From the NCBI GenBank assembly GCA_045643945.1, contig JAZRGA010000009.1, forward strand, positions 1,190 through 65,189: a DNA stretch of 64,000 bases. Reading direction: 5' to 3'. This DNA comes from Eubacteriales bacterium. GTDB lineage: Bacteria > Bacillota > Clostridia > Oscillospirales > CAG-272. The notes under the pieces were generated by a model. The model saw only the letters and a program-made list of their open reading frames with translations. It did no database searches and was not told the DNA's origin. Positions within the stretch are counted from its first letter, which is position 1. Each line of letters begins with the position of its first letter. Position numbers and translations under genes: made by a program. Positions 3,682 through 62,823 of the stretch are shown piece by piece.

Positions 3682-5092
3682 TTTTATTTTCCTTTCTTGT
3701 ATGAATTTTAGGCAATAAAGCGACAGCCACAAGACCCAAAGCAACGCAAGCAATTTCACTTATCGCCAATAATTTTATAGAGTCAACCGCCGCAGAAATT
3801 TCATCACTTCCCTTATTAATATTTGCCGTTACCCGATTTGTAAACAAAGGAACGAAAATCGCAACTCCGAACGGTGCGGCAAGATCACGGAATAGCCCGT
3901 ACGTTCCCGTAGCCGTACCCGCTTTTTTAGTGGATATTCCCGAAAGCACTACCCTCATAAAAATAGTTGCGTTAGCGCCAAGACCAAAGCCGAGCAGACC
4001 AAGCGAAGCCGCTAACGTCAAAATCGAGGTCGCAGAGGAAAATAAAAGCATTAAAGCGCTTCCGAATCCCGTAATGACGAACGATACACTTAAAATTCTC
4101 TTTGGCTCAAATTTATCGGCAAGCGGTCCGAGCAGAATCGAGCCTAACGACATTCCTACATACATGATTGATATAGCATACCCCGATATAACTGTGTTTT
4201 CGGGTTGAGTATAATTGACAAACACGATAATATTAGTCATATTTGCTTGCATCAAGCCTTGCGTTAAAAAAAGCGCAACAACCGATAGAACAAAGGAACG
4301 CCGCTTCATAAAGCTACCCTCCAAAATAGGAGTTTTCGCCCTTTTCTCGACAAAAGCAAGAGCAAAAAACGATATTACGGCGGCGATTAATACAATAGCA
4401 AACGGTATCGAGCGCCACCCAAAGTTTTGACCGAACGAGGGAACGCAAAGTATCAGGCTAAAGAATATCAATACAAGCACACTACCAAGCGCATCAAAGC
4501 CCGAAAGTGATTTTTTAACAGTCCTCTTTTCTTTATTCGTCAAAAGGCAAGCCAAAAATACGACAACCGAGATTGCGACGCATATCCACATCATCACGCG
4601 CCAGCCCCACCTATTTATAATAAGTCCTCCGAGCGTTGGTCCAAATATAACGGCAGCGCTCGATATAAGCATATAAAGCGAAAAACCGCCCGATATCTTA
4701 TCCGATGGAAATTCTCCCACTATATACGCAATTACTACGGGAGCAATAGCCGCGCTTCCTACTCCAACCACAAATCGTGCCGCAAGCATAAATATAAGCG
4801 ACGTTGCAGCTGCGGTCATAATATTTCCAAGAATAAAAATCAAAATCCCGAGGAGCAGTGTAATTCGTCTGCCGATAACGTCGCCAAGCTTTCCAAGAAT
4901 TGGGGCAAAAACGGCAGTAGATATAGACATAGCAAGTGCCGTCCAGGTTGTATTATTATAATCAAGTCCGAGGTCCTTTACAAATGCAGGTCCTAAAACC
5001 GTTGTAAATCCGCCGATAATACCTATTAAAAAAGCCGCAAGTGCATAAGGAATAAAGCCCAAGAGATAGCGCTTTGAATCCGTTCTTTCCAT
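3665..5092 (-). CDS. MFS transporter, DHA2/EmrB-like drug:H+ antiporter type
   Basis: Polytopic hydrophobic profile with MFS motif A, GKLGDVIGRR. Start moved to MERTDSK (ATG 5092), 5 nt after the RBS AAAGGAGAG. Confidence 0.8.
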   Translation of the reverse strand: MERTDSKRYLLGFIPYALAAFLIGIIGGFTTVLGPAFVKDLGLDYNNTTWTALAMSISTAVFAPILGKLGDVIGRRITLLLGILIFILGNIMTAAATSLIFMLAARFVVGVGSAAIAPVVIAYIVGEFPSDKISGGFSLYMLISSAAVIFGPTLGGLIINRWGWRVMMWICVAISVVVFLACLLTNKEKRTVKKSLSGFDALGSVLVLIFFSLILCVPSFGQNFGWRSIPFAIVLIAAVISFFALAFVEKRAKTPILEGSFMKRRSFVLSVVALFLTQGLMQANMTNIIVFVNYTQPENTVISGYAISIMYVGMSLGSILLGPLADKFEPKRILSVSFVITGFGSALMLLFSSATSILTLAASLGLLGFGLGANATIFMRVVLSGISTKKAGTATGTYGLFRDLAAPFGVAIFVPLFTNRVTANINKGSDEISAAVDSIKLLAISEIACVALGLVAVALLPKIHTRKENKNEAKG

Positions 5093-13191: not shown

Positions 13192-14967
13192 TTAATCTCT
13201 AACCTTTATGTGTACCTCACGGAGCTGCTGCTCGGTAACGTTACCGGGAGCGCCCATCATAACGTCCTGTGCGTTTCCGTTAAGCGGGAATGCGATAACG
13301 TCACGAATGGTGTCCTCCTCTGCGATAAGCATTATCATTCTGTCAACACCGGGAGCCATACCTGCGTGAGGAGGCGCACCGTAGGAGAATGCAGTGTAAA
13401 GAGCGCCAAACTTAGCCTTAACGTCTTCTTCACCGTAGCCTGCTATCTCAAACGCCTTCTTCATTATTTCGGGATTATGGTTTCTAACCGCACCCGAGGA
13501 AAGCTCTACGCCGTTGCAGACGATATCGTACTGATATGCAAAAATCTCAAGCGGGTCCTTGTTAAGAAGCGCGTCCATACCGCCCTGAGGCATTGAGAAA
13601 GGATTGTGAGTAAAGTCTATCTTCTTTGCCTCCTCGTTGTATTCATACATCGGGAAGTCAACTATGAAGCAAAATTCAAAGGAATCGTTCTTAATAAGTC
13701 CAAGCTCGTTTGCAATCCACGTTCTCATTTCGCCCGCAAGCTTATTAATAACGGCAGGAGCGTCGCTGATAAAGAACAAGGAGTCACCCTCTTTAATTCC
13801 ACAAAGCTCGCAAAGCTCTGTCTTCTGCTCGTCGGTCAAGAACTTAGCAATCGGGCCCTTGAACTCGCCGTCCTCAAGCGTAATATAACCGCATCCGAAC
13901 TTCATTCCGATACTTCTTGAATAAGTGTCGATAGCCTTCTCGAAAGCCTTCTTACCGTCACCCTCACCGTCACGCTTTACAAGATAGTTAGCAACTATAC
14001 CGCGAACGAGCTTGTTCTTAAAGGGTATCGTTCTACCGTTTATCTCGTTAAATTCGTGAGTTGCAAAGAACTCTGTGAGGTCATTAATAATAAGAGGGTT
14101 ACGAAGGTCGGGCTTATCTGTACCGTATTTAAGCATAGCCTCGTTAAACGCAATACGACGGAACGGAGGCTTGCTAACCTCTTTCTTGGAAAATTCCTTA
14201 AAGGTATTGTAAACAACGGTTTCAGCTACCTCGAATACGTCCTCTTGCGTTGCAAATGACATCTCGAAGTCGAGCTGATAAAATTCTCCGGGGGAACGGT
14301 CCTGACGAGCGTCCTCATCTCTAAAGCAAGGAGCTATCTGGAAGTAACGGTCAAAGCCCGAAGCCATAAGAAGCTGCTTAAACTGCTGAGGAGCCTGAGG
14401 GAGCGCATAGAACTTGCCCTTGTGCTTACGGCTGGGAACAAGATAGTCACGAGCGCCCTCGGGAGAGGATGCGGTGAGGATAGGAGTCTGAATTTCAAGG
14501 AATCCGAGTGCCTCCATCTGCTTACGCAAATAGCTTAAAATATTTGCTCGAAGAATTATATTGTTGTGAATGTCGGGATTACGAAGGTCAAGGAAACGGT
14601 ACTTAAGTCTTACGTCCTCTCTTGTATCGGTTGAATGAGCAGGCTCAAACGGAAGAGCGAGCTGACAAGGACCGAGAATTTCAAGAGAATCAACGCGAAC
14701 CTCGATAAGACCCGTCGCAATCTTGGGGTTAACGGTATCCTCGTCACGCTTGGTAACAACACCGCAAACCGAAACAACGGTTTCACGGGTCACACCGTTA
14801 AGCAACGAATCGTTAGAAAGAACGACCTGAGTTACGCCGTAATGGTCGCGAAGGTCAACGAAAATAACGCCGCCGTGGTCACGAACAGTATCAACCCAGC
14901 CCGCAAGAGTTACGCTCTCGCCTATATGCTTGGTAGAAAGCTCGTTACAATTGTGAGTTCTTAACAT
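13192..14967 (-). CDS. aspS: aspartate--tRNA ligase (bacterial type; likely non-discriminating given the operon context)
   Basis: 591 aa class II aaRS. FRDEDARQDR is motif 2 and GAPPHAGMAPGVDR is motif 3. It has an OB-fold N-terminus. The non-discriminating call is inferred from context only. Confidence 0.93.
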   Translation of the reverse strand: MLRTHNCNELSTKHIGESVTLAGWVDTVRDHGGVIFVDLRDHYGVTQVVLSNDSLLNGVTRETVVSVCGVVTKRDEDTVNPKIATGLIEVRVDSLEILGPCQLALPFEPAHSTDTREDVRLKYRFLDLRNPDIHNNIILRANILSYLRKQMEALGFLEIQTPILTASSPEGARDYLVPSRKHKGKFYALPQAPQQFKQLLMASGFDRYFQIAPCFRDEDARQDRSPGEFYQLDFEMSFATQEDVFEVAETVVYNTFKEFSKKEVSKPPFRRIAFNEAMLKYGTDKPDLRNPLIINDLTEFFATHEFNEINGRTIPFKNKLVRGIVANYLVKRDGEGDGKKAFEKAIDTYSRSIGMKFGCGYITLEDGEFKGPIAKFLTDEQKTELCELCGIKEGDSLFFISDAPAVINKLAGEMRTWIANELGLIKNDSFEFCFIVDFPMYEYNEEAKKIDFTHNPFSMPQGGMDALLNKDPLEIFAYQYDIVCNGVELSSGAVRNHNPEIMKKAFEIAGYGEEDVKAKFGALYTAFSYGAPPHAGMAPGVDRMIMLIAEEDTIRDVIAFPLNGNAQDVMMGAPGNVTEQQLREVHIKVRD

Positions 14968-15029: not shown

Positions 15030-15290
15030 AAAAAAAGATGCCAACGCCCCAAATGGGACGAAAGACATCTTCCGCGGTACCACCCATATTGACTCTAAAG
15101 CAAGAGTCCTCTTAAATCGCCGTCACGAGGCGCAAACGTGCAAGTCTAATAGCCGAATTAAACGGCGTTCTTTTGCAAGCTCCGAAGCGTTATTCACACG
15201 TTGTCCGATGCCCTTCTTCCACCAAGCGAAAGGCTCTCTGTAACCGTTCAAGCGCGCTACTCTCTCCATCATAGCCTATATATTCAATAC
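15030..15290 (-). promoter_or_regulatory. T-box riboswitch leader of aspS-gatCAB, specifier AAC (Asn)
   Basis: Read on the minus strand: GA/K-turn GATGGAGAGAGTAG, AG bay CAGAGAG, distal loop TTGGTGGAAG. The specifier loop GUGUG-AAU-AAC-G-CUUC aligns with the glyQS pattern GAA-codon-A-stem, placing the AAC codon at 15189..15191. T-box sequence AATATGGGTGGTACCGCGG lies at 15071..15089. Terminator hairpin 15036..15070 is followed by U7. Confidence 0.85.
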
Positions 15291-15387: not shown

Positions 15388-16137
15388 TTAATTGTTGGCT
15401 GCAGCCTCGGTGTCAATACCCTCAAACTCACCCGCATAGCCGGGATTTTCCTGTCTTGACATTACCGAAACGGTAATAGCATTAGACGAGAAAACATACT
15501 TTGAGGTATTACCATCTGAAGGCATCATCGTATTGTTGTACGCGGTTATTACAAGGCGGTATTTTGCTACGATTGGCTTGTTGTTTGCGTCAGTACCGCT
15601 GCTTCCGTCGGGGTTCTTGTGAGGCTCTGTATTCGTTTTATAGGTCCAAGTTTTGATTTTATTACCGCTATTATCTATACTATCTTTCTCCTCGCAATCC
15701 TCGCCCTCAATCTTAACGTATTCCTTAGAGTCAGGGTCATAGCGATAAACCTCGTAATCGCACCAGATTCCGTCCTCAAATCTGTTTTCTCTTGCCTTAT
15801 TAATCATAGCAGTAATCTTACTGTTAAAATCAACGGTAACAAAATACTCAGCGGCAACCTCGGATGCAGAGGTTTTTACCGAAAAATCAAAGCTTTTCTT
15901 CGCCTCGGTGTAGCCTATGGGAGCGCCCGGCTCTCCGTCTACGGCAAAGTTAAACTCTATCGCTTCATCTCTCGGTGAATTCATAACCAACTCAAACACT
16001 GCGGGGCGCGCAGATGCATTAGCATCACCCTTAGAAACGTATTTTGCGTAAACGGCAGATAAAACAACCGTTGAAATCAGTGCGACAACTAAAGCAATTA
16101 TTATAATTCTTGGCAGGATTTTACTTTTGTCCTTCAT
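15388..16137 (-). CDS. secreted TasA/camelysin-like protein P1 with a SipW-cognate-like signal peptide
   Basis: 249 aa. The N-terminus MKDKSKILPRIIIIALVVALISTVVLSAVYA|KYVSKGDANASARPAVFEL has V-x-A at -3/-1. Further in are GEPGAPIG...FDFSVK...SEVAAEYFV. It has its own promoter and terminator. The family assignment rests on motif and context only. Confidence 0.6.
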   Translation of the reverse strand: MKDKSKILPRIIIIALVVALISTVVLSAVYAKYVSKGDANASARPAVFELVMNSPRDEAIEFNFAVDGEPGAPIGYTEAKKSFDFSVKTSASEVAAEYFVTVDFNSKITAMINKARENRFEDGIWCDYEVYRYDPDSKEYVKIEGEDCEEKDSIDNSGNKIKTWTYKTNTEPHKNPDGSSGTDANNKPIVAKYRLVITAYNNTMMPSDGNTSKYVFSSNAITVSVMSRQENPGYAGEFEGIDTEAAANN

Positions 16138-16212
16138 TCAAAGTCCCCCTTGCTTTCAAAATCTTAAACTGTTATAATTCATATTTATTGTGATATAACT
16201 ATACACAATACA

Positions 16213-16241
16213 ATTTTACCACAGAACTGCTTTTTTTGCAA
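16213..16241 (-). promoter_or_regulatory. sigma-A type promoter of P1
   Basis: TTGCAA (16241..16236), 17-nt spacer ending in TGG (extended -10), TAAAAT (16218..16213). Confidence 0.6.
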
Positions 16242-16302
16242 TAGTTTTTTCAAAAAATATTTATTTATTGAAGAAAAAATAAAAAAATAATAAGAAAAAC
16301 CG

Positions 16303-17460
16303 CTATTTTTTCATTTGCCGTATCGCCTTGCACAAGCTTATAACGTCGGACTCACCGTTGAAAATTCCAAAGCTTGCGCGAACGCCTCCGCTTTCCGACG
16401 TGCCAATCGCCCTATGAGCAAGAGCCGCGCAGTGAAATCCACCTCGAACACAGATGCCCTTGCTTGAAAGATAGGCGCAGACTCGCTCGCAATCGTAGCC
16501 GTCAACCGAGAAAAGAAGCACCGAGCCGCTATAATCGGGACAGTGAATTTTCACGCCCTCAATTTTTGAAAGCTCCGACCTTGCAAGCTCAAAAAGTCCT
16601 CGCTCGTGCTGCTCGATTTTCTCAATTCCTATCCCCTCAACGGCAGAAATTCCCTCACAAAGACCGAATATCGACGGCAAAGGCAGAGTTCCCGCTTCAT
16701 ATCTCTCGGGCGCATCCTCGGACATTTCACCGATAAGAGAGTCGACTCCGTTTCCGCCCTCGATAAGGGTTTGCATCTTAATTTCATCACCCAAAAGCAC
16801 CGCTCCGCACCCTTGAGGGCCAAGCAAGCCCTTGTGAGCAGGCACGCAAAGAGCGTCTATCTTCATTTTTTTGAGTGACAAGGCAAAATGACCTGCCGCC
16901 TGCGCACCGTCAACAATAAATAGCACTCCCCTTTCTCGGCAAAGCTCACCGATTTTTTCAAGAGGTAGTCTGACAGAGCAAATATTGCTTGCCGCAGTGC
17001 AGATTAGCATAGTTGTATTTCTTTGTAATTTTTTTAATATATCAAGTAAAATTTCTTCATCGTCAAGCCGAGCCTCGCCACGCATAACGGTAAAGCAATC
17101 GTAATCTATATATCCTCTTTGCGAAAGCTTGTATATTGGACGGTAGACTGCATTATGCTCGATATTTGAAATCAAAACGTGCTGACCGCGCCGCAAAAGC
17201 CCCTTTATACACATATTTATTCCCTGCGTGGTGTTCATAGTAAAAAAGGCAGAGCCGTTTTGCGGTGAGTCGAAGAATTTAGAAAGTCGCATACGGCAAT
17301 CGAAAACGCCCTCCGCCGCTTGCATAGCCGTAGAGTAGCCGCCTCGACCCGCATTTCCGCCACAGTAGAGCATATATTTTTTAACGGCATCGCAAACCGC
17401 ATAAGGCTTTGGATAAGAGGTAGCGGCGTTGTCAAGGTATATCAAGTCGTTTTTGTCCAT
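16303..17460 (-). CDS. class V aminotransferase-fold cysteine desulfurase / selenocysteine lyase-like enzyme
   Basis: 385 aa. YLDNAATS, PLP-Lys block AHKGLLGPQG, and the active-site Cys in RGGFHCA. Confidence 0.8.
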   Translation of the reverse strand: MDKNDLIYLDNAATSYPKPYAVCDAVKKYMLYCGGNAGRGGYSTAMQAAEGVFDCRMRLSKFFDSPQNGSAFFTMNTTQGINMCIKGLLRRGQHVLISNIEHNAVYRPIYKLSQRGYIDYDCFTVMRGEARLDDEEILLDILKKLQRNTTMLICTAASNICSVRLPLEKIGELCRERGVLFIVDGAQAAGHFALSLKKMKIDALCVPAHKGLLGPQGCGAVLLGDEIKMQTLIEGGNGVDSLIGEMSEDAPERYEAGTLPLPSIFGLCEGISAVEGIGIEKIEQHERGLFELARSELSKIEGVKIHCPDYSGSVLLFSVDGYDCERVCAYLSSKGICVRGGFHCAALAHRAIGTSESGGVRASFGIFNGESDVISLCKAIRQMKK

Positions 17461-17675
17461 CTTCTCACCTTAACCCCCGTATTCATCAAAATATGCTCAA
17501 TATTTTCACTTTGAGCGCATATAAAGGAAAGACCGTAAACGCAACCACGGTTTGACGAGGAATTAGTTTTTATAACGGTTGTCGGTATAGCGGACTCGGC
17601 TAAGATACGTTGCGCGCGCATCGATTGAGTCATAGAGCCTATCTCGGCAACACATTCACTGTAAAAATCATTCAA
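17442..17675 (-). CDS. DUF3343-like small protein (putative S/Se carrier partner of the desulfurase)
   Basis: 77 aa. Overlaps the desulfurase start by 19 nt. The pattern ...AQRILAESAIPTTVIKTNSS..RGCVYGLSF... resembles DUF3343 as I recall it. RBS is GGAGGTGAAAGG. Confidence 0.55.
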   Translation of the reverse strand: MNDFYSECVAEIGSMTQSMRAQRILAESAIPTTVIKTNSSSNRGCVYGLSFICAQSENIEHILMNTGVKVRRWTKTT

Positions 17676-17788
17676 GCCCTTTCACCTCCTCATTATATAG
17701 TATGCGATAATCGAATTTGAGTGAATATTTTTTAGACGGATGAGGTGGAAAAAGCTTCGAATTTTGCCTTTCTTCATTCATAACGCCT

Positions 17789-17893
17789 ACGGCTACACCT
17801 CACCACCTGCTACGCAGGAGCCGTCTCGCTGCGGCTCGGTCACGCTACGGCTCTAACAGTCCACCGGACTGTTATTCACTACCGTAGCGCCGC
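17789..17893. other. GC-rich nested-hairpin intergenic element (possible small RNA or REP-like element)
   Basis: Hairpin A: ACGGCT (17789-94) pairs with AGCCGT (17819-24), with inner CCTGC-tac-GCAGG. Hairpin B: GCGG (17831-34) pairs with CCGC (17890-93), CGCTACGG (17843-50) pairs with CCGTAGCG (17882-89), and the inner hairpin is CAGTCC-acc-GGACTG (17857-71). The element sits in an otherwise AT-rich spacer. Confidence 0.4.
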
Positions 17894-17964
17894 TTCGCTA
17901 CCTCAAGGAGAAGCCTTTTATGTGCAGTGCTAACACAGTTATAATTTTGAAGAAAACTAATTAC

Positions 17965-17998
17965 GCAAAAAAGAGAGGCGCAAAACCTCTCTTTTTTA
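17965..17998. terminator. bidirectional terminator (terminates sipW1 on the minus strand)
   Basis: AAAAAAGAGAGG-cgcaaaa-CCTCTCTTTTTT. Confidence 0.85.
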
Positions 17999-18009
17999 AT
18001 TCTAACAGA

Positions 18010-18645
18010 TTACTTTTTATTTTTCTGCTCGACCTCTTTACGGAGGGCGTCGATTTGTGCTTGGATATCCTCCATTGTGCTATCGGCATCATCGCCCTTA
18101 AGACTTGCAATCTCCTGCTTGATTTTAGTAAGCTCGGCTTGGTCTTGCTCTTTCTCTTTCTTGGTGGAAAGATACAAAAGCATCGCAATTATCAATATCG
18201 AAAGCATTATTATAAGCGGTGACTGCATTATGCTGACGAACGGTCCGAGTCCCGCAAAGTTCTTTACTACCTTACCGATAATATATCTCTCCTGAAGCGG
18301 CATATCGTCCTTTGAGTTACCGATATAATCACCCTTAGTTACAAACGTTCCGTCCTCGTTTTCCTCGATAATTCGGTGTGTGACAATCATCGAGCCGTCC
18401 TCAAATGCAACTATGTCGCCGACCTTATATTCGTCCTGCGGAACAACCATAATAACGTCGCCCGTTTTAATCGTGGGGTACATACTGTCGCTCAAAACCT
18501 CTGCAAGACCGAAGCCAAGAGGCATAGGAATAGCCTTACCGACCATTGACGAGTTCCAAGAATAAATACCGAAGCCAAGCAATATGCTTATAATTACTAT
18601 GAGTATTCCTTTAATTATTATAAACTTTTTCTTTTTCATAACCAT
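18010..18645 (-). CDS. sipW: SipW-like (ER/archaeal-type, S26B) signal peptidase I, paralogue 1
   Basis: 211 aa with an N-terminal TM. SDSMYPTIKTGD is the Ser box, VTHRI the His box, and TKGDYIGNSKDD the Asp box. A second TM (LIIMLSILIIAMLLYL) is followed by a charged coiled-coil tail. Confidence 0.8.
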   Translation of the reverse strand: MVMKKKKFIIIKGILIVIISILLGFGIYSWNSSMVGKAIPMPLGFGLAEVLSDSMYPTIKTGDVIMVVPQDEYKVGDIVAFEDGSMIVTHRIIEENEDGTFVTKGDYIGNSKDDMPLQERYIIGKVVKNFAGLGPFVSIMQSPLIIMLSILIIAMLLYLSTKKEKEQDQAELTKIKQEIASLKGDDADSTMEDIQAQIDALRKEVEQKNKK

Positions 18646-18720
18646 TGACCTCTTTTTTTATCTTTTAAACGTCCCCGAAAAATCGGGAGCATTTGAAAAA
18701 CAAAAAAAACAAATTTCTAT

Positions 18721-18760
18721 AAAAACGAGGTGACCACCTCGCCACCAAGGCGGTCACCCG
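18721..18760 (-). terminator. rho-independent terminator after the TasA-like gene P2
   Basis: Minus-strand GGTGACC-gccttggtggcgaggt-GGTCACC followed by TCGTTTTT. Confidence 0.7.
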
Positions 18761-18819
18761 TTTTATTATTTAGAAGTTAATTTTTAATTAAAATAAATGT
18801 TTTAATTTAAAATTAGTTG

Positions 18820-19608
18820 TTAGGGCTGAGCAGTGTAAGTATCAACCTGCTGTGCTTCTACGCTGAAAGAAATCTGAATTGTAGGATCATCCTGTGTATC
18901 AGTGTTTGCCGCAGCATCACCAAGCAAGGAATCTTTCTCATTATCAATATTATTATCAGCAGACTCATCAAAATCCCAACGCCAACTTACAGCAACACCA
19001 TCGTTAGCAGCACTATTCACCGGGGTATTAGGAGCATAAGTCTTAATATACTCACTATCTCCATTAGCAGTAGGAACTTCACCAAGTATAGCAGTAACGA
19101 TAGCGTTTTCAACAGCCGTTTCGAAGGCTGCCATGCTAGTATAGTCCATACCATCATATTCAGTACCATCTACAGTGATGATAAGAGGACAATAATACGT
19201 CTTAGATGCACTCTCGCCAACTTCCCAACCACTAAGAGCAAGATTAGCCTTAACAATAAGCTGATATGCTACTTCAGGCTGACCCTCAACTTTAATAGCA
19301 AAAGCATCAGACGCATTAGATGTTCCAGGAGCAACAACAATTGCATCGGAATGTCCCTCAACAGAAAGATCACCCTCACCATCGTATGAGTTAAGGAAGA
19401 GTTTGATGTTCTTATCTTCATCGAGTTCAGACGTAGCAGGAGCAGTAGCAGTTATAGTCAAGCCCCACTTTGCTGCTCGAGCCATGTTAGATGCAACTTC
19501 TTTTTCAGCAGTTACATACTTAGCAAAAGTGCTTGAAATAGCGCAAGTTGTGAGAAGAACAGCAACCATAAGTACGGAAGCGATCTTTAACATAACATTC
19601 TTTTTCAT
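18820..19608 (-). CDS. secreted TasA/camelysin-like protein P2 with a SipW-cognate-like signal peptide
   Basis: 262 aa. The N-terminus MKKNVMLKIASVLMVAVLLTTCAISSTFA|KYVTAEKEVASNMARAAKWGL has T-x-A at -3/-1. Further in are VAPGTSNASDAFAIKVEG..EVAYQLIV. Strong RBS AAAGGAGAA. Codon usage is visibly different from the neighbouring genes. The family assignment rests on motif and context only. Confidence 0.6.
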   Translation of the reverse strand: MKKNVMLKIASVLMVAVLLTTCAISSTFAKYVTAEKEVASNMARAAKWGLTITATAPATSELDEDKNIKLFLNSYDGEGDLSVEGHSDAIVVAPGTSNASDAFAIKVEGQPEVAYQLIVKANLALSGWEVGESASKTYYCPLIITVDGTEYDGMDYTSMAAFETAVENAIVTAILGEVPTANGDSEYIKTYAPNTPVNSAANDGVAVSWRWDFDESADNNIDNEKDSLLGDAAANTDTQDDPTIQISFSVEAQQVDTYTAQP

Positions 19609-19704
19609 AGTATCAAAATTCTCCTTTATAGATTTTTTTGAAATAGGTCATATTTTATCGTTCTCAAATGTGGCGGGAGAACGTAATGCCTCATAAATAA
19701 TTAA

Positions 19705-20598
19705 TTATTCTTTCGAATTTTCGTCTACGGGCTTGTCTGCCTCGGTAGCGTTTTCGGAAGAATCGTTTTCAGGTACGCCTGCACCCTCGGCAGCCGCCTT
19801 TGCCGCCTTAAGAGCCTCGAGCTCTGCAAGAAGCGCGTTCATATCCTGCGCCTTGCTCTTGTCCTTCTTCTTTCTGCTTATAAACTCATAAGCTATGAAC
19901 AAAAGAAGCGGAACCGCTATACAAATTACCCAGCCCCAAGTGGTCTGCATAAACATTGAAACCTTACCAACGAAAGGAACTCTTGTGTAGGTGTATGCAC
20001 CAACCAGCTCCTTATCAGTAAGCTCAACGGGCTTGGAGTCCTTATGTCCATCGTAAACTACGTATTCATACTCGGGACGCTTCTCGTCCTTAATGATTGT
20101 AGCCTTATTCTCAACCTCTGCAAGCAATCCGTCGGGATTGTTCTTGTCGTTACGAGCATTTGCGCGATCTCTTTCGTAATCGTTGCTTGCGTTGAAGTCA
20201 CCGGCAGTCGTTGCATATCTTACACCGTCTTTTTCTTCAATTGCGATAACACGGTGGGTTAAGATTGCATCTGTGGGGCTTGAGGGGTCAAAGAACGAAA
20301 TTACGTCGCCTACGTTAACGCTATCGGGGTCGCAAGCCTGAGCGATGATTATGTCACCCTCCTCTATAAGCGGGCTCATAGATGGCGAAAGAACAATCAT
20401 AGGCGTATATCCAAACAAGGACGGCGGTTTATCGGGCTGGGTAAATCCAACAACGATAAGCGCACAGTTTATAATAAGTATCGGAACTAAGATTACGCAA
20501 AGGACTATGCCGATTATAAGCGAAACCTTGTTGCCCGTCGTACTCGGCTCTTTTTCTTTGGTCTTTGCAACCGAATTCTTGTTAGCATTGTTGTTCAT
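19705..20598 (-). CDS. sipW: SipW-like (S26B) signal peptidase I, paralogue 2, with an insertion and a long C-terminal tail
   Basis: 297 aa. LSPSMSPLIEEGD is the Ser box, LTHRV the His box, and TAGDFNASND the Asp box (KGD reads AGD). A roughly 55-aa charged insertion precedes VPFVGKV. The C-terminal TM WGWVICIAVPLLLFIAYEFI is followed by an Ala/Glu-rich tail. Confidence 0.75.
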   Translation of the reverse strand: MNNNANKNSVAKTKEKEPSTTGNKVSLIIGIVLCVILVPILIINCALIVVGFTQPDKPPSLFGYTPMIVLSPSMSPLIEEGDIIIAQACDPDSVNVGDVISFFDPSSPTDAILTHRVIAIEEKDGVRYATTAGDFNASNDYERDRANARNDKNNPDGLLAEVENKATIIKDEKRPEYEYVVYDGHKDSKPVELTDKELVGAYTYTRVPFVGKVSMFMQTTWGWVICIAVPLLLFIAYEFISRKKKDKSKAQDMNALLAELEALKAAKAAAEGAGVPENDSSENATEADKPVDENSKE

Positions 20599-20662
20599 CG
20601 GTATTAACTTTTCTCCTGTGTTTTTATGTTATTTAAAGGCAATTTGCATTTCAACCAAGTAT

Positions 20663-20686
20663 AAGGATGATATCGATATCACCCTT
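20663..20686 (-). promoter_or_regulatory. 24-nt near-perfect palindrome in the sipW2 5' UTR
   Basis: Minus-strand AAGGGTGATATC|GATATCATCCTT with one G-U position. It lies between the predicted TSS (about 20714) and the start codon at 20598. Confidence 0.4.
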
Positions 20687-20720
20687 ACTTGTCTGCGCCT
20701 GTCTTTTCTTCGTTGTAATG

Positions 20721-20749
20721 ATTATACCATTTTTTCACATAGTTGTCAA
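20721..20749 (-). promoter_or_regulatory. consensus sigma-A promoter of sipW2-P2
   Basis: TTGACA (20749..20744), 17-nt spacer ending in TGG, TATAAT (20726..20721). Confidence 0.75.
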
Positions 20750-57858: not shown

Positions 57859-60800
57859 CTACTCGGTGAAGGTAAGCGTTCCATGCCTTATCGTAATATG
57901 ATAATTTCCGGTAACGGTCTTTCCATTTGCATTAACTATTTTTAGACTTTCTAAATCTATCGGATTGTCTGTTTTTCCGATATAATTAAGCTGACCTATT
58001 GCCTCAGCCTCTAAAACGTCGCCCTCCGCAAGCGGTCCTACGGATACGTAGACCTTCTTGTTTTCAAGAACCGCGCCCTCGATGTACTGCGCTTCAGACG
58101 AGCCTGTGGTTAATTCAATTACTCGAGGAGTTATCTTAACCACAATGTAATCATCAAGACTTAACTTATCACTCGGAGAAACAAGCCTTAGACGGAAATT
58201 TCGGCTTATGTCATCGCCCTTATCGTTAGTTACGCTAAAATCAAAATATGAGCCGATAGATTCATTAATAGCCGTTGCCGAAAGCTCGTGAACGTTTACT
58301 TCACTAAAGGTTTCTACAAGCTTAAGCTCAAAGCCCGATTTTATAAAGTCCTCGCTCTTTACAGAGAAGAAATTATCCTCATCATATCTTGCAGGCTTAC
58401 CGTCATACGGCTTATAAATATTAAATACCGAAATATCTATAGTTGCGGGAGTAATTTTCAAAATTCCCGTTCGGGTATTAACATTAAACCTATAAGTTAT
58501 ATTATTGCCGTTAGCATCCAAAATGCGAACGTCCGTAATACCACTCGAGATACTTCCAACGTCAATAATTTCTCCGCTATACGTTCCTTCAATCTTATAT
58601 CCGTTGTCCTCAAAAAGCTTTTTAAGCTCCTCGGACGCACCGTAAAGCTCTGCATTAGTAGCGGTAAGAGGAGTACCGTCGTAAATCTTTGAGTCATCCT
58701 CAGGCTTAACGAAAATATCTATTTTTTCATCCAAGGAAGCTTCTATCTGCATCCAACCGTACGAATCAACAAATACCTCTACCCAATGATATTTATCCTT
58801 TACCTCTGTCTTTTGATTAGCCACTGCATCTACCATATATCCCTCAACGTATCTTGCGGGAACGCCCAACGCTCTGTAAAGCATTGTAGTAGCAATAGCG
58901 AAATGCTTTGACGAGCCTACTTTATAGGTGGTCAAGAACTCAACTGCTATGTCCTCTGAGCTATCGAGCGACTCATCGTAATTAGTATCATAAACCGCAG
59001 TGTTTTTAACGAATGCGGCTATTGCGGATATGCGCTCATCGGTAGTCATATCGCTAAAGTCTATATCGCTTACCAAAGCTAACAAGGCGATCTTGGTATC
59101 ATTCGGAATATTAAGATAATTATCATAAACCCAAGTTGTATATCGAGAATATCCCGAGGGAGTATATCTATAAAGTCCGCTCGTTCCCTCCGCTTCATAA
59201 TTGTAATTATAGTAATAAAGGCTATAATCGGTCTTATTGCTTAAGGTTGTATAATCCTCTGAATTGTAGAGAGGCATATCGTAATTTCCGCCAAAGGTCA
59301 TATAATAAGGAAGCATATAAGTTGTCGCATTGGAAATTCTGATATAATTCTCGGTATAATTGCTTTTCAAAAGATTAATTGACGACCAAAGCATAAAGCT
59401 GCAAGTATGATAAGTGCCGCCATAGTTATAGCGGAATGAGCGTCCTGCCGCAGGAGCAGGGCCAAAGCTATCACCGTTGTAATCACCGTAGGACTTCGTC
59501 TTTAAGTAAATACGTCCGCCCTCGGTAGATTGTACGTTAGCAACCACCACCTTGTAAACCTCAAGTGTTCCCTCTACGTATTTTATATCGTAATTACGCG
59601 AATAATCAATACCGTTTCCATCTAAGATTTTCGCATCGTTATTCATCTTATTCGAGGATTTTCCCTCCTCGGTTTGACTTCCGTGAGCAACGATATCAAG
59701 CGTATGACCGTCAAGCAAGGTATGCTCGCTATTTACGGAGATGCTGCAATCGGATGCTCTAAGCGGTCTTCCGTCATATTCCTTCTTTGCGCTTGCAGAC
59801 TCGACTATTATGCTTCGCTTTTGAACTGTGAGGGTATATTCGCCGTCTACAACGATTTCGTAATTGTGGTCAACACGAGCATCCCCATCATAAATAACCG
59901 CAGGATTGAGCGAATCGGGCTTTATATCAATCGTTCCCGCATCGGTTATAGATTCAAAGTTTATTTCGATTATTCTATGATTGCCAATAAGTCCTTCATC
60001 GTTTGCCGAATCCGAAATATCAATATAATTTATACATTCAAGCGGAAGTCCGTCATAAAGCTTAATCGTTTCGTCGGGCAAAGGCTTAACCCTTATCACT
60101 CTTGGCTCAACGGTAAGAGTACCGTAATTTTCAATTATCTTATAATTACCAAGAGCAGTTATGTCCTCGCCATTTTCATCGAAAATCTTAATCTCTACCG
60201 CATTAGGAGTAGAGCCTGCGTCGGTTATAGTTCCAATCGCCTCTATAGAAGCGCTATGCCCTTCTAAAATCTTTTCCAAATAATCCGATGTATATGACAG
60301 ATAAACGAGCGGTGACCCATCATAGGTCTTTGATTTCGAAGCTGTGGTTACGGTTATCTCAATAGGAAGAATTTCCAACTTACCTATATTTTGAGTAACC
60401 TCATAATATTGCTTAACGCTTTCGCCTCTTTCGTCAAGAATATCAAGCTCGTGGATTTCATTATCGTATATACCCGCGTTTATTACCGATACAGGTAAAG
60501 AATAAACTATACTGTGACCCTCCAACAAACCGTCATTCATATCTGAAATCGGGTCGATAGTCAATTCTGTTCCGCGAAGTGGCTTCTTATCGTAAAGCTT
60601 TGTTTCACTGTTAGAGGAAACAGAAAGCTTTCTCAAAAGGACCTCGAGAATACCGTTTACGCATTGAACATCATAATTTTCAGTCATATTAACTTCATTT
60701 GCGTCTACGATAACAACACTGCCGTCAACGATAATATTTTCCCATCTGCCAACAATACCCGCATCGGTTGCGCCCACAATTTCCTTAATCGTAAATTTTA

Positions 60801-62823
60801 TATCGGATATTCTGTGTCCCTCGATAAGCTCGCCCGTTATAATCTCATATTCGGGAAGAACAAAGTCCTCACCGTCGTAAGGCTTTTGTCCGCTTGCGGA
60901 TTGAAGTACAAGCTTTCTCGGAAGTATAGTAATCACGCCCGGAGCTGCACTTATCTCAAAGTTAGCGGTAGCATCCTCTCCTGCATAGACAACTGTGGTT
61001 TTATCAAGGTCTACCTCGGCATCGTGAACACCAACGTTTGACGTTAAGTGCTTATATACTACGTTTAACGTATGACCTGCGGGAATTTCTCCCTCAAGTA
61101 TTTCATACTCAAGCTCGGAAAACTCCAAGCCATCGTATTCCTTGGAATTATCTAACACCTTAAGCGCAATCTTGCACTTCTCTATCTCTACGGTGCCGTA
61201 GACCTCGGTAATTTCGTAATTTCTATAAGCATCAAGCGATTTAATACCCGTTGAACGCTTAGAATATATCTTAGCGGTAAGTATCTTATTTTCATTTTCA
61301 TATCTGCCTGCCTGAGAAAAGCTTGGGAACGTAAGCTCTAAGGTATCGTTCTCGGCAAGCGAGCCGCTTGTTATATTATAGTTTTTGAAAACTCGCTCTG
61401 TACCGTCATAAACAAGATTATCGGGCCCGTTTTCGTGAGTAACGGTAATAGGACGCTTTGTAACCTCAACAGTGCCTATATCACCGAATATAAGCTCGTA
61501 ATTATTCAAAACATCCTTGCCCTCGGCATTACGCACCGACTTTATCTCAACGGTATTCTCCTCGACGCCTACGTCGATAACCGTCGGCCATGAGGCGGTT
61601 ACAGAATGTCCCGCTATAAAGCCCTCCATATGTATATCGGCATAATGCTCTTGACCGTCATACATCCATTTTCCGCTTTCCGAGGATATAGTCACAGGTC
61701 TTGGAGTTACCTCAAGCCAGCCTCTTTCGTAAAAGAGCGAGTAATTATGAGTTTTATCCTCGCCAACGGAATTTTTAATTTCAATAGCAAGCACGTTTTC
61801 AACAAAATCAACGTCGGTTATCGAGGTGCTTGATACACATTCGGCAATATGTCCGTCGACAATATCGTACTCGCCTATTATCTTATAATCGGGATTCGAA
61901 AGCGCCGTATCATCGTAAACCTTTTCTGCGCTCGGTGTTTCGATTATCAAAGGACGATAATCAACCTTAAGCGTTCCTATATGAGTTGAAATAATGTAGT
62001 GAACGCTTACGTCTAAGCTATCAGAGGATATAACGCTAAGCGTAGGAGTGTTTTCAATCTCGCCAACGTCGATAAGATATTTATCGAAAACCGCTTGAAG
62101 CGTGTCGCCCTCTGCAAGAGTTCCGCCGCTAAGCTCATATCCGTCATAAGAAAGCCTTGTATCGTTATAAATAAGCTCCTTATCCGACACAGTGACTAAT
62201 ATAGGTCGAGGCAATACCGTTATTTGCGTCGAAACGGGAATAATATTATAAAGCGCCGTTACGTCCTCACCGTGAGAATTTTCTATTTTTATGCTCTCCT
62301 TATTAGGTGCTACGTCGGTAACCGTCGCTAAGCGATCGGCATAAACGAAGCTCTTACAAGCAAGAGTATCACCGCTTGCAAGCTCGGCAAAAACGGACGG
62401 CGTCGCTCCGTAAACGATCTCCTTATCGGTAACCGACACATTTGCGCTTCTCGCCTTTAATACAAAGCTGTAAGTCTTACCGTATTTAGTTTGACCGAAC
62501 AAGGTCTTAGCCGTTGCTCTTACACTGTGCTCGCCCAACGATTTTGGAGGCTCTGCGCTCCAATCTGTACCGTTTGAGGAATATTCATATACTACCCTTG
62601 CAAGGATAGCCTTGGAGTTAAGCGGCAAAGCATCTCCGTATGTCACCTCAAAGCCGTCAGCATCAGACTCATCGTCAATCACTATTCCCTTTGTCACCAT
62701 AAAAGCGATAATGGCGGCAATAACAAGAACAGTGACAATGCTTATCAGCACTATATGCTTAAATATTTTTCTTAGGGTATCAACCACCCTTGAGATTTTT
62801 TTATGGTAGCTATCGTATAACAT
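57859..62823 (-). CDS. giant membrane-anchored surface protein: N-terminal TM, about 11 YDG/MBG-like repeats, transglutaminase-like core with Cys replaced by Ser, then 3 more repeats (1654 aa)
   Basis: TM segment HIVLISIVTVLVIAAIIAFMV. Repeats of roughly 85-90 aa recur with the pattern K.YDG..L....Y.I..G.L..GH/GD.....G..N........G.D.T.NY.I....G.L.V. The core reads VGSSKHFAIATTMLYRALGVPARYVEGY...YHWVEVFVDSYGWMQIEAS. RBS is AAAGGTGG. Confidence 0.85.
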   Translation of the reverse strand: MLYDSYHKKISRVVDTLRKIFKHIVLISIVTVLVIAAIIAFMVTKGIVIDDESDADGFEVTYGDALPLNSKAILARVVYEYSSNGTDWSAEPPKSLGEHSVRATAKTLFGQTKYGKTYSFVLKARSANVSVTDKEIVYGATPSVFAELASGDTLACKSFVYADRLATVTDVAPNKESIKIENSHGEDVTALYNIIPVSTQITVLPRPILVTVSDKELIYNDTRLSYDGYELSGGTLAEGDTLQAVFDKYLIDVGEIENTPTLSVISSDSLDVSVHYIISTHIGTLKVDYRPLIIETPSAEKVYDDTALSNPDYKIIGEYDIVDGHIAECVSSTSITDVDFVENVLAIEIKNSVGEDKTHNYSLFYERGWLEVTPRPVTISSESGKWMYDGQEHYADIHMEGFIAGHSVTASWPTVIDVGVEENTVEIKSVRNAEGKDVLNNYELIFGDIGTVEVTKRPITVTHENGPDNLVYDGTERVFKNYNITSGSLAENDTLELTFPSFSQAGRYENENKILTAKIYSKRSTGIKSLDAYRNYEITEVYGTVEIEKCKIALKVLDNSKEYDGLEFSELEYEILEGEIPAGHTLNVVYKHLTSNVGVHDAEVDLDKTTVVYAGEDATANFEISAAPGVITILPRKLVLQSASGQKPYDGEDFVLPEYEIITGELIEGHRISDIKFTIKEIVGATDAGIVGRWENIIVDGSVVIVDANEVNMTENYDVQCVNGILEVLLRKLSVSSNSETKLYDKKPLRGTELTIDPISDMNDGLLEGHSIVYSLPVSVINAGIYDNEIHELDILDERGESVKQYYEVTQNIGKLEILPIEITVTTASKSKTYDGSPLVYLSYTSDYLEKILEGHSASIEAIGTITDAGSTPNAVEIKIFDENGEDITALGNYKIIENYGTLTVEPRVIRVKPLPDETIKLYDGLPLECINYIDISDSANDEGLIGNHRIIEINFESITDAGTIDIKPDSLNPAVIYDGDARVDHNYEIVVDGEYTLTVQKRSIIVESASAKKEYDGRPLRASDCSISVNSEHTLLDGHTLDIVAHGSQTEEGKSSNKMNNDAKILDGNGIDYSRNYDIKYVEGTLEVYKVVVANVQSTEGGRIYLKTKSYGDYNGDSFGPAPAAGRSFRYNYGGTYHTCSFMLWSSINLLKSNYTENYIRISNATTYMLPYYMTFGGNYDMPLYNSEDYTTLSNKTDYSLYYYNYNYEAEGTSGLYRYTPSGYSRYTTWVYDNYLNIPNDTKIALLALVSDIDFSDMTTDERISAIAAFVKNTAVYDTNYDESLDSSEDIAVEFLTTYKVGSSKHFAIATTMLYRALGVPARYVEGYMVDAVANQKTEVKDKYHWVEVFVDSYGWMQIEASLDEKIDIFVKPEDDSKIYDGTPLTATNAELYGASEELKKLFEDNGYKIEGTYSGEIIDVGSISSGITDVRILDANGNNITYRFNVNTRTGILKITPATIDISVFNIYKPYDGKPARYDEDNFFSVKSEDFIKSGFELKLVETFSEVNVHELSATAINESIGSYFDFSVTNDKGDDISRNFRLRLVSPSDKLSLDDYIVVKITPRVIELTTGSSEAQYIEGAVLENKKVYVSVGPLAEGDVLEAEAIGQLNYIGKTDNPIDLESLKIVNANGKTVTGNYHITIRHGTLTFTE

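Follow-up and report, generated by a model that had tools for sequence, protein, structure and literature searches.

Bacterial loci in which a signal peptidase of the endoplasmic reticulum (ER) type is encoded beside its cognate fibre subunits are an already known kind of system, exemplified by SipW/TasA/TapA of Bacillus subtilis and by SipW/BsaA of Clostridium perfringens. In TasA, the donor strand comprises residues 28-38 and lies directly after the SipW cleavage site, the N-terminus of TapA mimics this donor strand, and monomeric TasA self-complements in crystals yet forms fibres (PMC9674648). SipW itself employs the catalytic residues Ser47, His87 and Asp106 rather than a Ser-Lys dyad, and possesses a C-terminal membrane segment followed by a cytoplasmic tail with a signalling role (PMC8767453). 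The wider BsaA/TasA family is extremely divergent, having been assembled only by iterative searches with hidden Markov models (HMMs), and its members occur in operons that also encode signal peptidases, LPxTG proteins and sortases and that hold several paralogues (10.1101/2024.11.04.621531). Here we describe a locus on 64 kb of DNA from a Eubacteriales bacterium (contig JAZRGA010000009.1, positions 1,190 to 65,189; hereafter the window), in which two SipW-type peptidase genes, sipW2 and sipW1, lie with the genes of two putative exported proteins, P2 and P1. The system is real, widespread, uncharacterised and hypervariable between strains, and we hold it reasonably probable that the locus serves the export and assembly of an uncharacterised surface or matrix fibre, working like SipW/TasA/TapA and SipW/BsaA. 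P2 would most likely be the main subunit of this TasA-like surface fibre.

All four genes are read on the minus strand, and the coordinates given for them in an original prediction made from the sequence alone are exact in the list of open reading frames (ORFs): sipW2 at 19705-20598 (297 aa), P2 at 18820-19608 (262 aa), sipW1 at 18010-18645 (211 aa) and P1 at 15388-16137 (249 aa).

Two SipW-type signal peptidases

That prediction identified both peptidases as members of the SipW-type S26B class, and this assignment is borne out by model scores and by conserved catalytic Ser and His residues. Specifically, sipW1 and sipW2 score 79.2 and 78.3 bits with the archaeal-type model TIGR02228 (sigpep_I_arch; curated cutoff 51.85), and both stay under the cutoff of the bacterial P-type model TIGR02227. 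Neither reaches the cutoff of 190 bits set for the Bacillus SipW equivalog NF046067 (57.0 and 77.9 bits), and on these scores the two are classed as SipW-class enzymes and not as orthologues of B. subtilis SipW. Identity between the two siblings is 38%, limited to 84 residues.

The catalytic boxes read S-D-S-M-Y-P and S-P-S-M-S-P, V-T-H-R and L-T-H-R, and, in sipW2, A-G-D-F-N. All of the boxes originally quoted are thus present, with the reservation that the last box of sipW1 is K-G-D-Y-I-G-N, the spacing of which departs from the pattern proposed. Across 71 orthologues of each peptidase from other genomes, the Ser of S-M and the His of (T)H(R) are conserved at 90% or more, as are the GD..N..D box of sipW1 and the tail motifs LL.ELE.L (sipW2) and EI..L (sipW1). 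Because catalytic residues and boxes are conserved in these orthologues, both peptidases look catalytically competent. The acidic catalytic residue of sipW2 is uncertain, because only T.G..N and a later Asp are conserved in the acidic region of its orthologues.

Reading of the translations places hydrophobic stretches at residues ~8-28 and 136-158 of sipW1 and at ~25-52 and 213-238 of sipW2, followed in each case by a charged, coiled-coil-like tail; the catalytic domain of sipW2 additionally holds an insertion of ~60 aa. By this reading, the layout of B. subtilis SipW, one membrane segment towards each terminus and a tail after the second, recurs in both peptidases. The pair had been regarded as unusual, a description that suits the presence of two copies and the length of their tails but not the second membrane segment with its tail, which is already known for SipW (PMC8767453).

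P1 and P2 share a signal and are homologous throughout

The putative signal of P2 spans residues 1-29, with predicted cleavage at TFA/KYV (the slash marking the cleaved bond), and is followed by a beta-rich mature domain. P1 begins with a signal of the same type, VYA/KYVS ... ARPAVFEL; the N-termini originally quoted for both proteins are exact. Scans of P1 and P2 against Pfam and NCBIfam gave no relevant family match, in agreement with the earlier statement that the cargo belongs to no named family. In the protein collection searched, P2 has more than 1,273 homologues, all unnamed and none with a Pfam domain, and P1 has 36; an exact look-up of contigs encoding P2 returned no record. Members of the P2 family hardly differ in their first 33 residues (MKKNAMLKIAAILMVAVLLTTCAISSTFAKYVT) and are ~40% identical in the remainder; relatives of P1 keep S-x-V-Y-A-K-Y-V-S and R-P-A-x-F-E, and A29, K30 and Y31 are invariant in the family alignments.

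Several comparisons tie the two proteins together. Firstly, BLASTP aligns P1 and P2 with E = 7e-5 over 53 residues, and small profiles of the two (hhalign, A1 versus A2) match at 94% over the N-terminal 53 columns only, so that the N-terminal module seen at the outset is shared beyond chance. Secondly, when the P1 family is compared with the P2 superfamily, represented by a profile of 94 diverse members, hhalign returns 99.4% and E = 3e-21 over 209 columns, in an alignment that pairs the PG and EVA motifs, also noted previously, as well as the last strand ending in an invariant Gln. These profile comparisons indicate that P1 and P2 are paralogues whose homology extends from end to end, and replace the earlier view that the two have simply diverged outside the shared motifs.

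Conservation is unevenly distributed along each protein. Mean pairwise identity in the P2 family is 0.83 in the signal, 0.81 at positions +1 to +4, 0.19 in the next 8-9 residues, 0.62 in the following strand and 0.36 in the rest; the corresponding values are 0.62, 0.94, 0.21, 0.64 and 0.47 for P1, and 0.73, 0.98, 0.38, 0.46 and 0.40 for TasA, for which Bacillaceae sequences served as control. Judged from these alignments, the shape is the same in all three families: conserved signal, conserved +1 to +4, variable linker, conserved strand. The original prediction had emphasized selective conservation of the post-cleavage strand; such a strand does exist, but it is the signal peptide and the first four mature residues that are conserved best. 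The conserved N-terminus would thus reflect recognition by the peptidase at least as much as a donor strand.

The signal is distinctive enough to be searched for by itself. Within the window, AKY[VSTIA] behind a hydrophobic N-terminal stretch is confined to P1 and P2. When 1.84 billion cluster representatives were searched with a profile built from the N-terminal 58 residues of P1- and P2-type proteins, 4,264 of them matched at E <= 1e-3 and 1,693 at E <= 1e-10; among the best 150 of the 4,264, the match falls within residues 1-55, beginning at or near residue 1, and the length of most proteins is 200-350 residues. This signal-marked family is covered by no model of Pfam or NCBIfam.

A fuller cluster in gut Clostridia

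A scan of one genome per GTDB species found a P2 relative in 227 species, and 80 loci were kept for comparison. According to their record titles, nearly all of the 80 come from metagenome-assembled genomes (MAGs) recovered from the guts of humans, ruminants and birds, whose names on submission include Oscillospiraceae, Acutalibacteraceae, Eubacteriales, Clostridia, Faecousia, Vescimonas and the like. The ORFs of these loci were searched with the four proteins of the window, and counts were made over loci with enough flanking DNA. P2 has sipW2 upstream in 59 of 60 loci and sipW1 downstream in 66 of 67; of the 51 species-level loci in which both flanks are present, 50 keep the order sipW2-P2-sipW1. 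Co-occurrence of the cargo with S26B peptidases, a possibility raised by the original prediction, is therefore close to strict.

In most genomes, the cluster is larger than in the window, the usual order being sipW2, P2, X, sipW1, Y and, often, Z. A gene stands between P2 and sipW1, the X position, in 67 of 71 loci. X is a protein of 300-450 aa and a full-length homologue of P2 (hhalign 99.6%, E = 1e-23), which in 41 of the 67 has at its end a (S/P/L/I)PxTG(D) motif, then a membrane segment and lastly a charged tail, an arrangement recognizable in the sequence as a sortase-type wall-sorting signal. Its (S/P)PxTG motif is one that we take to resemble the motif of the Clostridioides difficile class B sortase. 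Y (~175 aa, with G-L-Y-A-R-Y-T) is likewise homologous to P2 over its full length (99.6%, E = 6e-24), and Z (~190 aa, with A-V-A-K-Y-V) has only the signal in common with P2 (91.8%).

The window and its closest relatives (L001, L083 and L085) are without X and Z, and no sortase or LPXTG protein was found in the window (ORFs of at least 100 aa) or in these three loci. P1 resembles Y, the small paralogue that follows sipW1 elsewhere (phmmer E = 2e-7), and from this similarity would be a Y-like member displaced by 1.9 kb. The window holds a reduced form of a larger conserved cluster.

Further variation was noted among the kept loci. In six of them (L006, L011, L020, L033, L048 and L070), the longest ORF at the X position is 390-450 aa long, has no terminal PxTG and ends in a segment such as LKEKGLIP..AKQMKILARNG...ETQGISAEARK..EAGG.V.I, which by eye recalls the C-terminus of ribosomal protein uL15. 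The X paralogues of five others (L041, L052, L056, L069 and L081) also have no PxTG and end in a plain C-terminal membrane anchor (..HGGT[IV]R.LWFILLF.N..M..FY..W.LNKR.NKW), which suggests membrane rather than wall anchoring in these loci. Copy number varies as well: L035, L052, L056, L069 and L081 hold two tandem P2 genes, and a third SipW-type peptidase gene is present in some loci (L052, L056, L065 and L072). No sortase was recognized adjoining the inspected loci. One candidate, at 3945-4529 (+) of L010, directly upstream of sipW2, encodes 194 aa with an N-terminal membrane segment, looked like a sortase by eye and was rejected, having neither a Pfam match nor an obvious catalytic Cys motif.

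Expression signature and hypervariability of P2

The most striking traits of P2, its codon bias and its extreme variability between strains, were overlooked by the original prediction. The fraction of T-ending codons in four-fold families is 0.67 in P2 versus 0.20-0.45 in the other window ORFs of at least 150 aa, and the G+C content at third codon positions (GC3) is 0.28. The same shift marks the P2 orthologues of three other genomes, one of them with a GC3 above 0.7, and is absent from the neighbouring X, Y, Z and sipW genes of those three genomes. In addition, the sipW2-P2 unit is preceded by a predicted promoter at 20721-20749 (minus strand), ~120 nt upstream of the sipW2 start codon, which a consensus scan confirmed, as had been proposed, as a perfect TTGACA-17-TATAAT (12 of 12 positions) with an extended -10 TG. 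Together, codon bias and consensus promoter point to very high expression of P2.

Variability is illustrated by a conspecific contig (L083), whose flanking DNA is 96-98% identical to the window. At the amino-acid level, the two are identical in DUF896 (100%) and nearly so in sipW1 (99.5%), the aminotransferase encoded between sipW1 and P1 (98.7%), sipW2 (97.6%) and P1 (96.8%); their P2 proteins are 97% identical over residues 1-33 and 33% identical beyond. In blastn, the alignment of the window to L083 stops at ~19509 and restarts at ~18844, delimiting a hypervariable cassette inside P2 (18845-19508, minus strand) that covers mature residues 34 to ~254 and has conserved DNA at both ends. Across five conspecific strains, sipW2 is 96-99% and the P2 signal 91-100% identical, every pair of mature P2 proteins is 31-39% identical, and P2 lengths range from 227 to 262 aa. 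The P2 of a different species (L085, with a flavodiiron protein 92.6% identical to that of the window) is 60% identical to that of the window, closer than any conspecific allele; therefore, alleles move between lineages.

By analogy, conserved ends with an exchanged and presumably exposed centre are the pattern of flagellins and pilins, and the contrast between mature P2 (31-39%) and sipW2 (96-99%) argues for surface exposure of P2. The variation of the P2 body is serotype-like and points to strong selection by phage or host immunity.

Relation to TasA

The AlphaFold2 model of P2 is confident (predicted local distance difference test, pLDDT, 82.7; predicted template modelling score, pTM, 0.76) and shows a signal helix joined by an unstructured linker to a beta-sandwich that has ~ten strands along with three helices. 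When the model was compared with the Protein Data Bank (PDB) by Foldseek, the first match was the TasA fibre, 8aur_A (E = 3.4e-3, probability 0.91, template modelling (TM) score 0.30, root mean square deviation 10.5 A), and donor-strand-complemented FimG was also among the matches.

Likeness to TasA is most apparent in the signal. The family signal aligns with that of TasA, MKKN..GTFAKY with KKKL..GTWAAF, and ISGTFAKYVT and the TasA sequence GGGTWAAFND agree at -4 (Gly), -3 (Thr), -2 (aromatic), -1 (Ala) and +2 (aromatic). The original prediction had set the KYV signature apart from the classical SipW-cognate signal; instead, S-G-T-F-A-K-Y aligns with G-G-T-W-A-A-F, both fitting G-T-x-A-x-[FY], although the TIGR04088 HMM finds no match. 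Also colinear with TasA, at a non-significant level, are a PG[TD]..F.L.N.G strand and the final strand with its terminal Gln.

One Cys per family is invariant in the mature domain (P2, in Y-C-P at 139-141; P1, C126), as is a Gln in the last strand (P2 Q254, P1 Q229), of which TasA relatives keep the equivalent (E-A-T-Q-W). An internal Cys-Gln thioester, or an isopeptide lock like that of BsaA, was considered and set aside: the only Cys of Y adjoins the Gln, and TasA has the last-strand Gln without a cross-link.

A number of observations weigh against the interpretation of the locus as encoding a TasA-like fibre. Firstly, the match of P2 to 8aur lies below the same-fold level in both TM score and deviation, and for P1, of which the model is poor (pLDDT 67.8), the first match of this low-confidence structure is an unrelated enzyme, AvmM, with 8aur seventh (E = 0.046). 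Secondly, Pfam PF12389 (Peptidase_M73), carried by all of the control TasA relatives, gave no match at E <= 1 for P1, P2 or the paralogues of L027, and the NCBIfam TasA, BsaA and TIGR04088 models gave none among 40 family members at E <= 10. Thirdly, profile comparisons with an alignment of 30 Bacillaceae TasA sequences (retrieved with a TasA query sequence 99% identical to the database entry) were made at full length, for mature regions only at a low setting of the hhalign parameter mact, for the X, Y and Z paralogues and for the merged superfamily, and none was significant: 0.4% for A1, 4% for A2 and 3% for A5 (signal region only), 0.6% for the mature-only comparison, 2.2% for X, 26.5% for Y, the best of all, and 2.3% for the merged superfamily. 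Additionally, the wall-anchor subunit is absent from the window, and all carriers are uncultured MAGs, for which reason no fibres have been seen. Finally, the codon bias of P2 could instead stem from a foreign origin of the horizontally exchanged allele pool. PDB sequences searched with HMMs of both family profiles likewise returned chance matches only. The link of P2 and P1 to TasA is consequently weak, and membership of the cargo in Peptidase_M73 is left unsupported by sequence models and profiles.

A proposed fibre and its alternatives

By analogy with the described systems, the locus likely works like a TasA/BsaA fibre, and the architecture of its relatives, with a major subunit, a wall-anchored paralogue and small paralogues, would fit a surface fibre. 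In the best-supported division of labour, P2 would form an abundant, variable shaft, P1 or Y (and Z) would be conserved minor subunits, and X would serve as wall anchor where it is present, with the two peptidases as dedicated machinery for processing and perhaps for assembly. P2 would be made in large amounts and enter the Sec pathway by means of its nearly invariant signal peptide, which sipW2, sipW1 or both would recognize in the membrane. Cleavage after the invariant Ala, in (S/G)-T-F-A/K-Y-V, would leave a mature N-terminus of KYVT, a variable linker and the conserved AR-V-A-K-W-G strand, and this N-terminal segment may then, by donor-strand complementation, slot into the beta-sandwich of the subunit that follows and so yield a linear polymer. 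P1, which has the same signal and a related N-terminal segment and is conserved between strains, would act as a minor subunit, whether nucleator, adaptor or tip, as TapA does for TasA. In most relatives, wall anchorage of the fibre would fall to the paralogue that ends in a sortase signal of the (S/P)PxTG type; in the genome of the window, which has no such paralogue, the polymer would be released or held in some other way. Recombination within the conserved signal-coding and 3' flanks would swap the exposed P2 body between strains and so generate the serotype-like variation, with phage or host antibody presumably as the selective pressure behind it.

The alternative that survives best is that P2 and its paralogues are abundant secreted or surface-associated proteins that do not polymerize, such as a strain-specific coat, adhesin or decoy antigen, with a private export signal, the two peptidases as a processing system of their own and no fibre. 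The signal, the linkage, the signature of abundance and the hypervariability fit this explanation equally well, the fold match to TasA is weak (TM 0.30) and all profile comparisons with TasA fail; furthermore, the monomer model of P2 keeps AR-x-A-K-W-G within its own subunit (pLDDT ~91, residues 41-50). Against this last point, monomeric TasA also self-complements in crystals and yet forms fibres (PMC9674648). Moreover, several paralogues per locus, one of them anchored to the wall and one hyper-expressed, make up the pattern of a heteropolymeric fibre, and it is hard to see what function a monomer would have for the conserved post-cleavage segment that major and minor paralogues have in common. 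On balance, we regard the absence of any fibre as unlikely, if still to be taken seriously.

Far less probable is a covalent pilus assembled by sortase, in which X would be joined to P2 through the invariant Lys at +1 as nucleophile and the SipW peptidases would do no more than expose this Lys. Two features speak for such a pilus, namely the (S/P)PxTG-like motif, membrane segment and charged tail of X in 41 of the 67 loci with a gene at that position, and the invariance of K30 in P2 and P1. Shaft pilins of sortase pili, however, each need a sorting signal of their own, and no LPXTG-type C-terminal signal was found in P1, P2 or any window ORF of at least 100 aa. The window has neither a sortase nor X, and no sortase was recognized beside the inspected loci, where the ORF upstream of sipW2 in L010 has no Pfam match. 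At +1, Y carries Arg rather than Lys, a substitution by which a role of the Lys as sortase nucleophile was judged unlikely.

That the hydrophobic N-terminus stays in place, serving as membrane anchor or, in the manner of type IV pilins, as a core helix of pilin type, is scarcely credible: a pairwise identity of 0.83 in the hydrophobic region against 0.36 in the body is far above that of ordinary signal peptides, but TasA-family signals are similarly conserved and are nonetheless cleaved by SipW (PMC9674648), the combination of Thr or Val at -3 with a small, invariant residue at -1 is as expected for signal peptidase I, and the inspected loci hold no prepilin peptidase or PilB/PilC-like genes. 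Type IV pilins proper are ruled out by the want of a class III signal, the N-termini being MKKNVMLKIASV... and MKDKSKILPRII..., with no G/F motif before the hydrophobic stretch and neither a Gly-Phe junction nor a Glu at +5 in the 94 and 25 aligned members. An S-layer protein was rejected as well, P2 being too small and a Pfam scan showing no SLH or CWB2 domain.

Returning to the fibre, a bolder extension of it would make the two diverged SipW paralogues, instead of redundant signal peptidases, a dedicated and possibly heteromeric membrane platform, paired through their conserved coiled-coil tails, that reads the invariant signal of more than 4,000 cargo clusters and couples cleavage to the ordered assembly of a heteropolymer. 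This would amount to a new secretion-and-assembly pathway specific to gut Oscillospirales, with P2 as a principal strain-specific surface antigen and phage receptor of these abundant commensals. As a whole, we consider this extension doubtful.

Regulatory sites and neighbouring genes

Of the terminators originally claimed for the locus, two strong ones were recovered by a scan for intrinsic terminators: one after P2 (18728-18759, minus strand), with a 14-bp stem of which 8 pairs are G-C and a T-run, and one after P1 (15344-15369, minus strand), with a 10-bp stem and a T-run. The third, after sipW1 (~17967-17991, minus strand), is absent from the scan list and was recognized by reading the sequence as a terminator-like hairpin (GAGAGG/CCTCTC with a T-run). 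A promoter of its own had been attributed to P1; the best site upstream (16213-16241, minus strand) is a weak, promoter-like match of 9 of 12 positions with a TG, which is no stronger than the background level of such matches.

The interval between sipW1 and P1 (16303-17675, minus strand) is occupied by genes unrelated to the locus, encoding a small Se/S-carrier-like protein (PF11823) and a class V aminotransferase or cysteine desulfurase-like protein. The same insertion is present in the conspecific contig L083 and missing from more distant relatives. The housekeeping neighbourhood is syntenic among loci and includes ffh, a UPF0122 gene, a flavodiiron protein gene and DUF896.

Beyond P1, a T-box leader at 15051-15281 (minus strand; Rfam RF00230, 106.8 bits) is the sole Rfam match in the interval of 13-24 kb and is unrelated to the locus; a second perfect TTGACA-17-TATAAT promoter, at 15325-15297, belongs to this leader and not to P1. 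The ORF downstream of the leader (13192-14967) is an aspartyl-tRNA synthetase by reading of its translation alone. Close to the window's end is a very long ORF of 1,654 aa (57859-62823, minus strand).

Significance

A literature search for SipW in Oscillospiraceae and under related names yielded nothing of use, and nothing published was found on this part of the cell surface of the carriers, which are known here only from gut and rumen MAGs. The locus would give these Clostridia a defined and probably very abundant surface structure. Variation in P2 offers a natural strain marker and makes the protein a candidate target of immunoglobulin A (IgA) coating, a candidate phage receptor and a possible source of strain-level differences in host interaction. 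The subunit family comprises more than 4,000 sequence clusters without annotation, its machinery is recognizable and its signal varies so little that searches can be keyed to it; a single profile of the 58 N-terminal residues would label thousands of 'hypothetical proteins'. For studies of TasA, SipW-coupled assembly would be extended to an arrangement of two peptidases with a sortase-anchored paralogue.

Comparison with known systems

The tapA-sipW-tasA locus of B. subtilis (PDB 8aur, 5of1/5of2) resembles the one described here in several respects. In both, the gene of a dedicated S26B peptidase adjoins those of its substrates, the substrate signal is unusually conserved and ends in G-T-x-A/x-[FY], and the N-terminal conservation profile is the same. 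The major subunit (here, putatively, P2) is a beta-rich protein of ~25 kDa with inserted helices, the N-terminus of the minor partner resembles that of the major one, a membrane segment near the C-terminus of the peptidase is followed by a cytoplasmic tail, and the TasA fibre is the best PDB match of P2. Unlike in B. subtilis, two diverged peptidases rather than one flank the cargo, their tails are ~55 residues long and coiled-coil-like, the residues at +1 and +2 are Lys and Tyr instead of Ala and Phe, and the anchor found in relatives is a sortase substrate rather than TapA. The mature domains show no detectable sequence homology, with a TM score of only 0.30, and the major subunit is here hypervariable within a species, a trait of which we know no description for TasA.

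Also close in organization is the sipW-bsaA-bsaB-bsaC operon of C. perfringens (Kivimaki et al., 10.1101/2024.11.04.621531; Obana et al., PMC7395162), which is clostridial, SipW-dependent and endowed with several TasA-like paralogues; the BsaA/TasA family further shares high divergence, neighbouring LPxTG, sortase and signal peptidase genes and, for BsaA/TasA, a proposed donor-strand model. This system was compared by its description and by the NCBIfam BsaA/TasA models, which gave no match, and it differs in that the present locus has two peptidases and no von Willebrand A protein or type IV pilus genes. Archaeal bundling pili (AbpA) and AbpX (PMC9245690; bioRxiv 10.64898/2026.01.04.697558) are similarly TasA-like donor-strand polymers that need an archaeal/ER-type peptidase, and the peptidases described here score best on the archaeal-type model TIGR02228; AbpA and AbpX are nevertheless archaeal, and gave no sequence or fold match in PDB searches.

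Two further comparisons concern architecture. Sortase-dependent pili of Gram-positive bacteria show a comparable arrangement of major, minor and anchor genes, and the X of relatives carries a C-terminal (S/P)PxTG-like signal, but P1 and P2 have no sorting signal, pilin motif or Cna-B/SpaA fold match, and the window has no sortase. Flagellins and type IV pilins share with P2 the conserved termini for export and assembly, the hypervariable and recombined centre, predicted here to be exposed, and the signatures of high expression, and differ from it in export route, fold and assembly machinery. Taken together, these comparisons indicate what is new with respect to the literature known to us: a strict two-peptidase arrangement, a K-Y variant of the cognate signal and a huge cargo superfamily without a curated model, joined in these uncultured gut commensals by a paralogue with a putative sortase anchor and a major subunit, as P2 is interpreted here, of serotype-like hypervariability.

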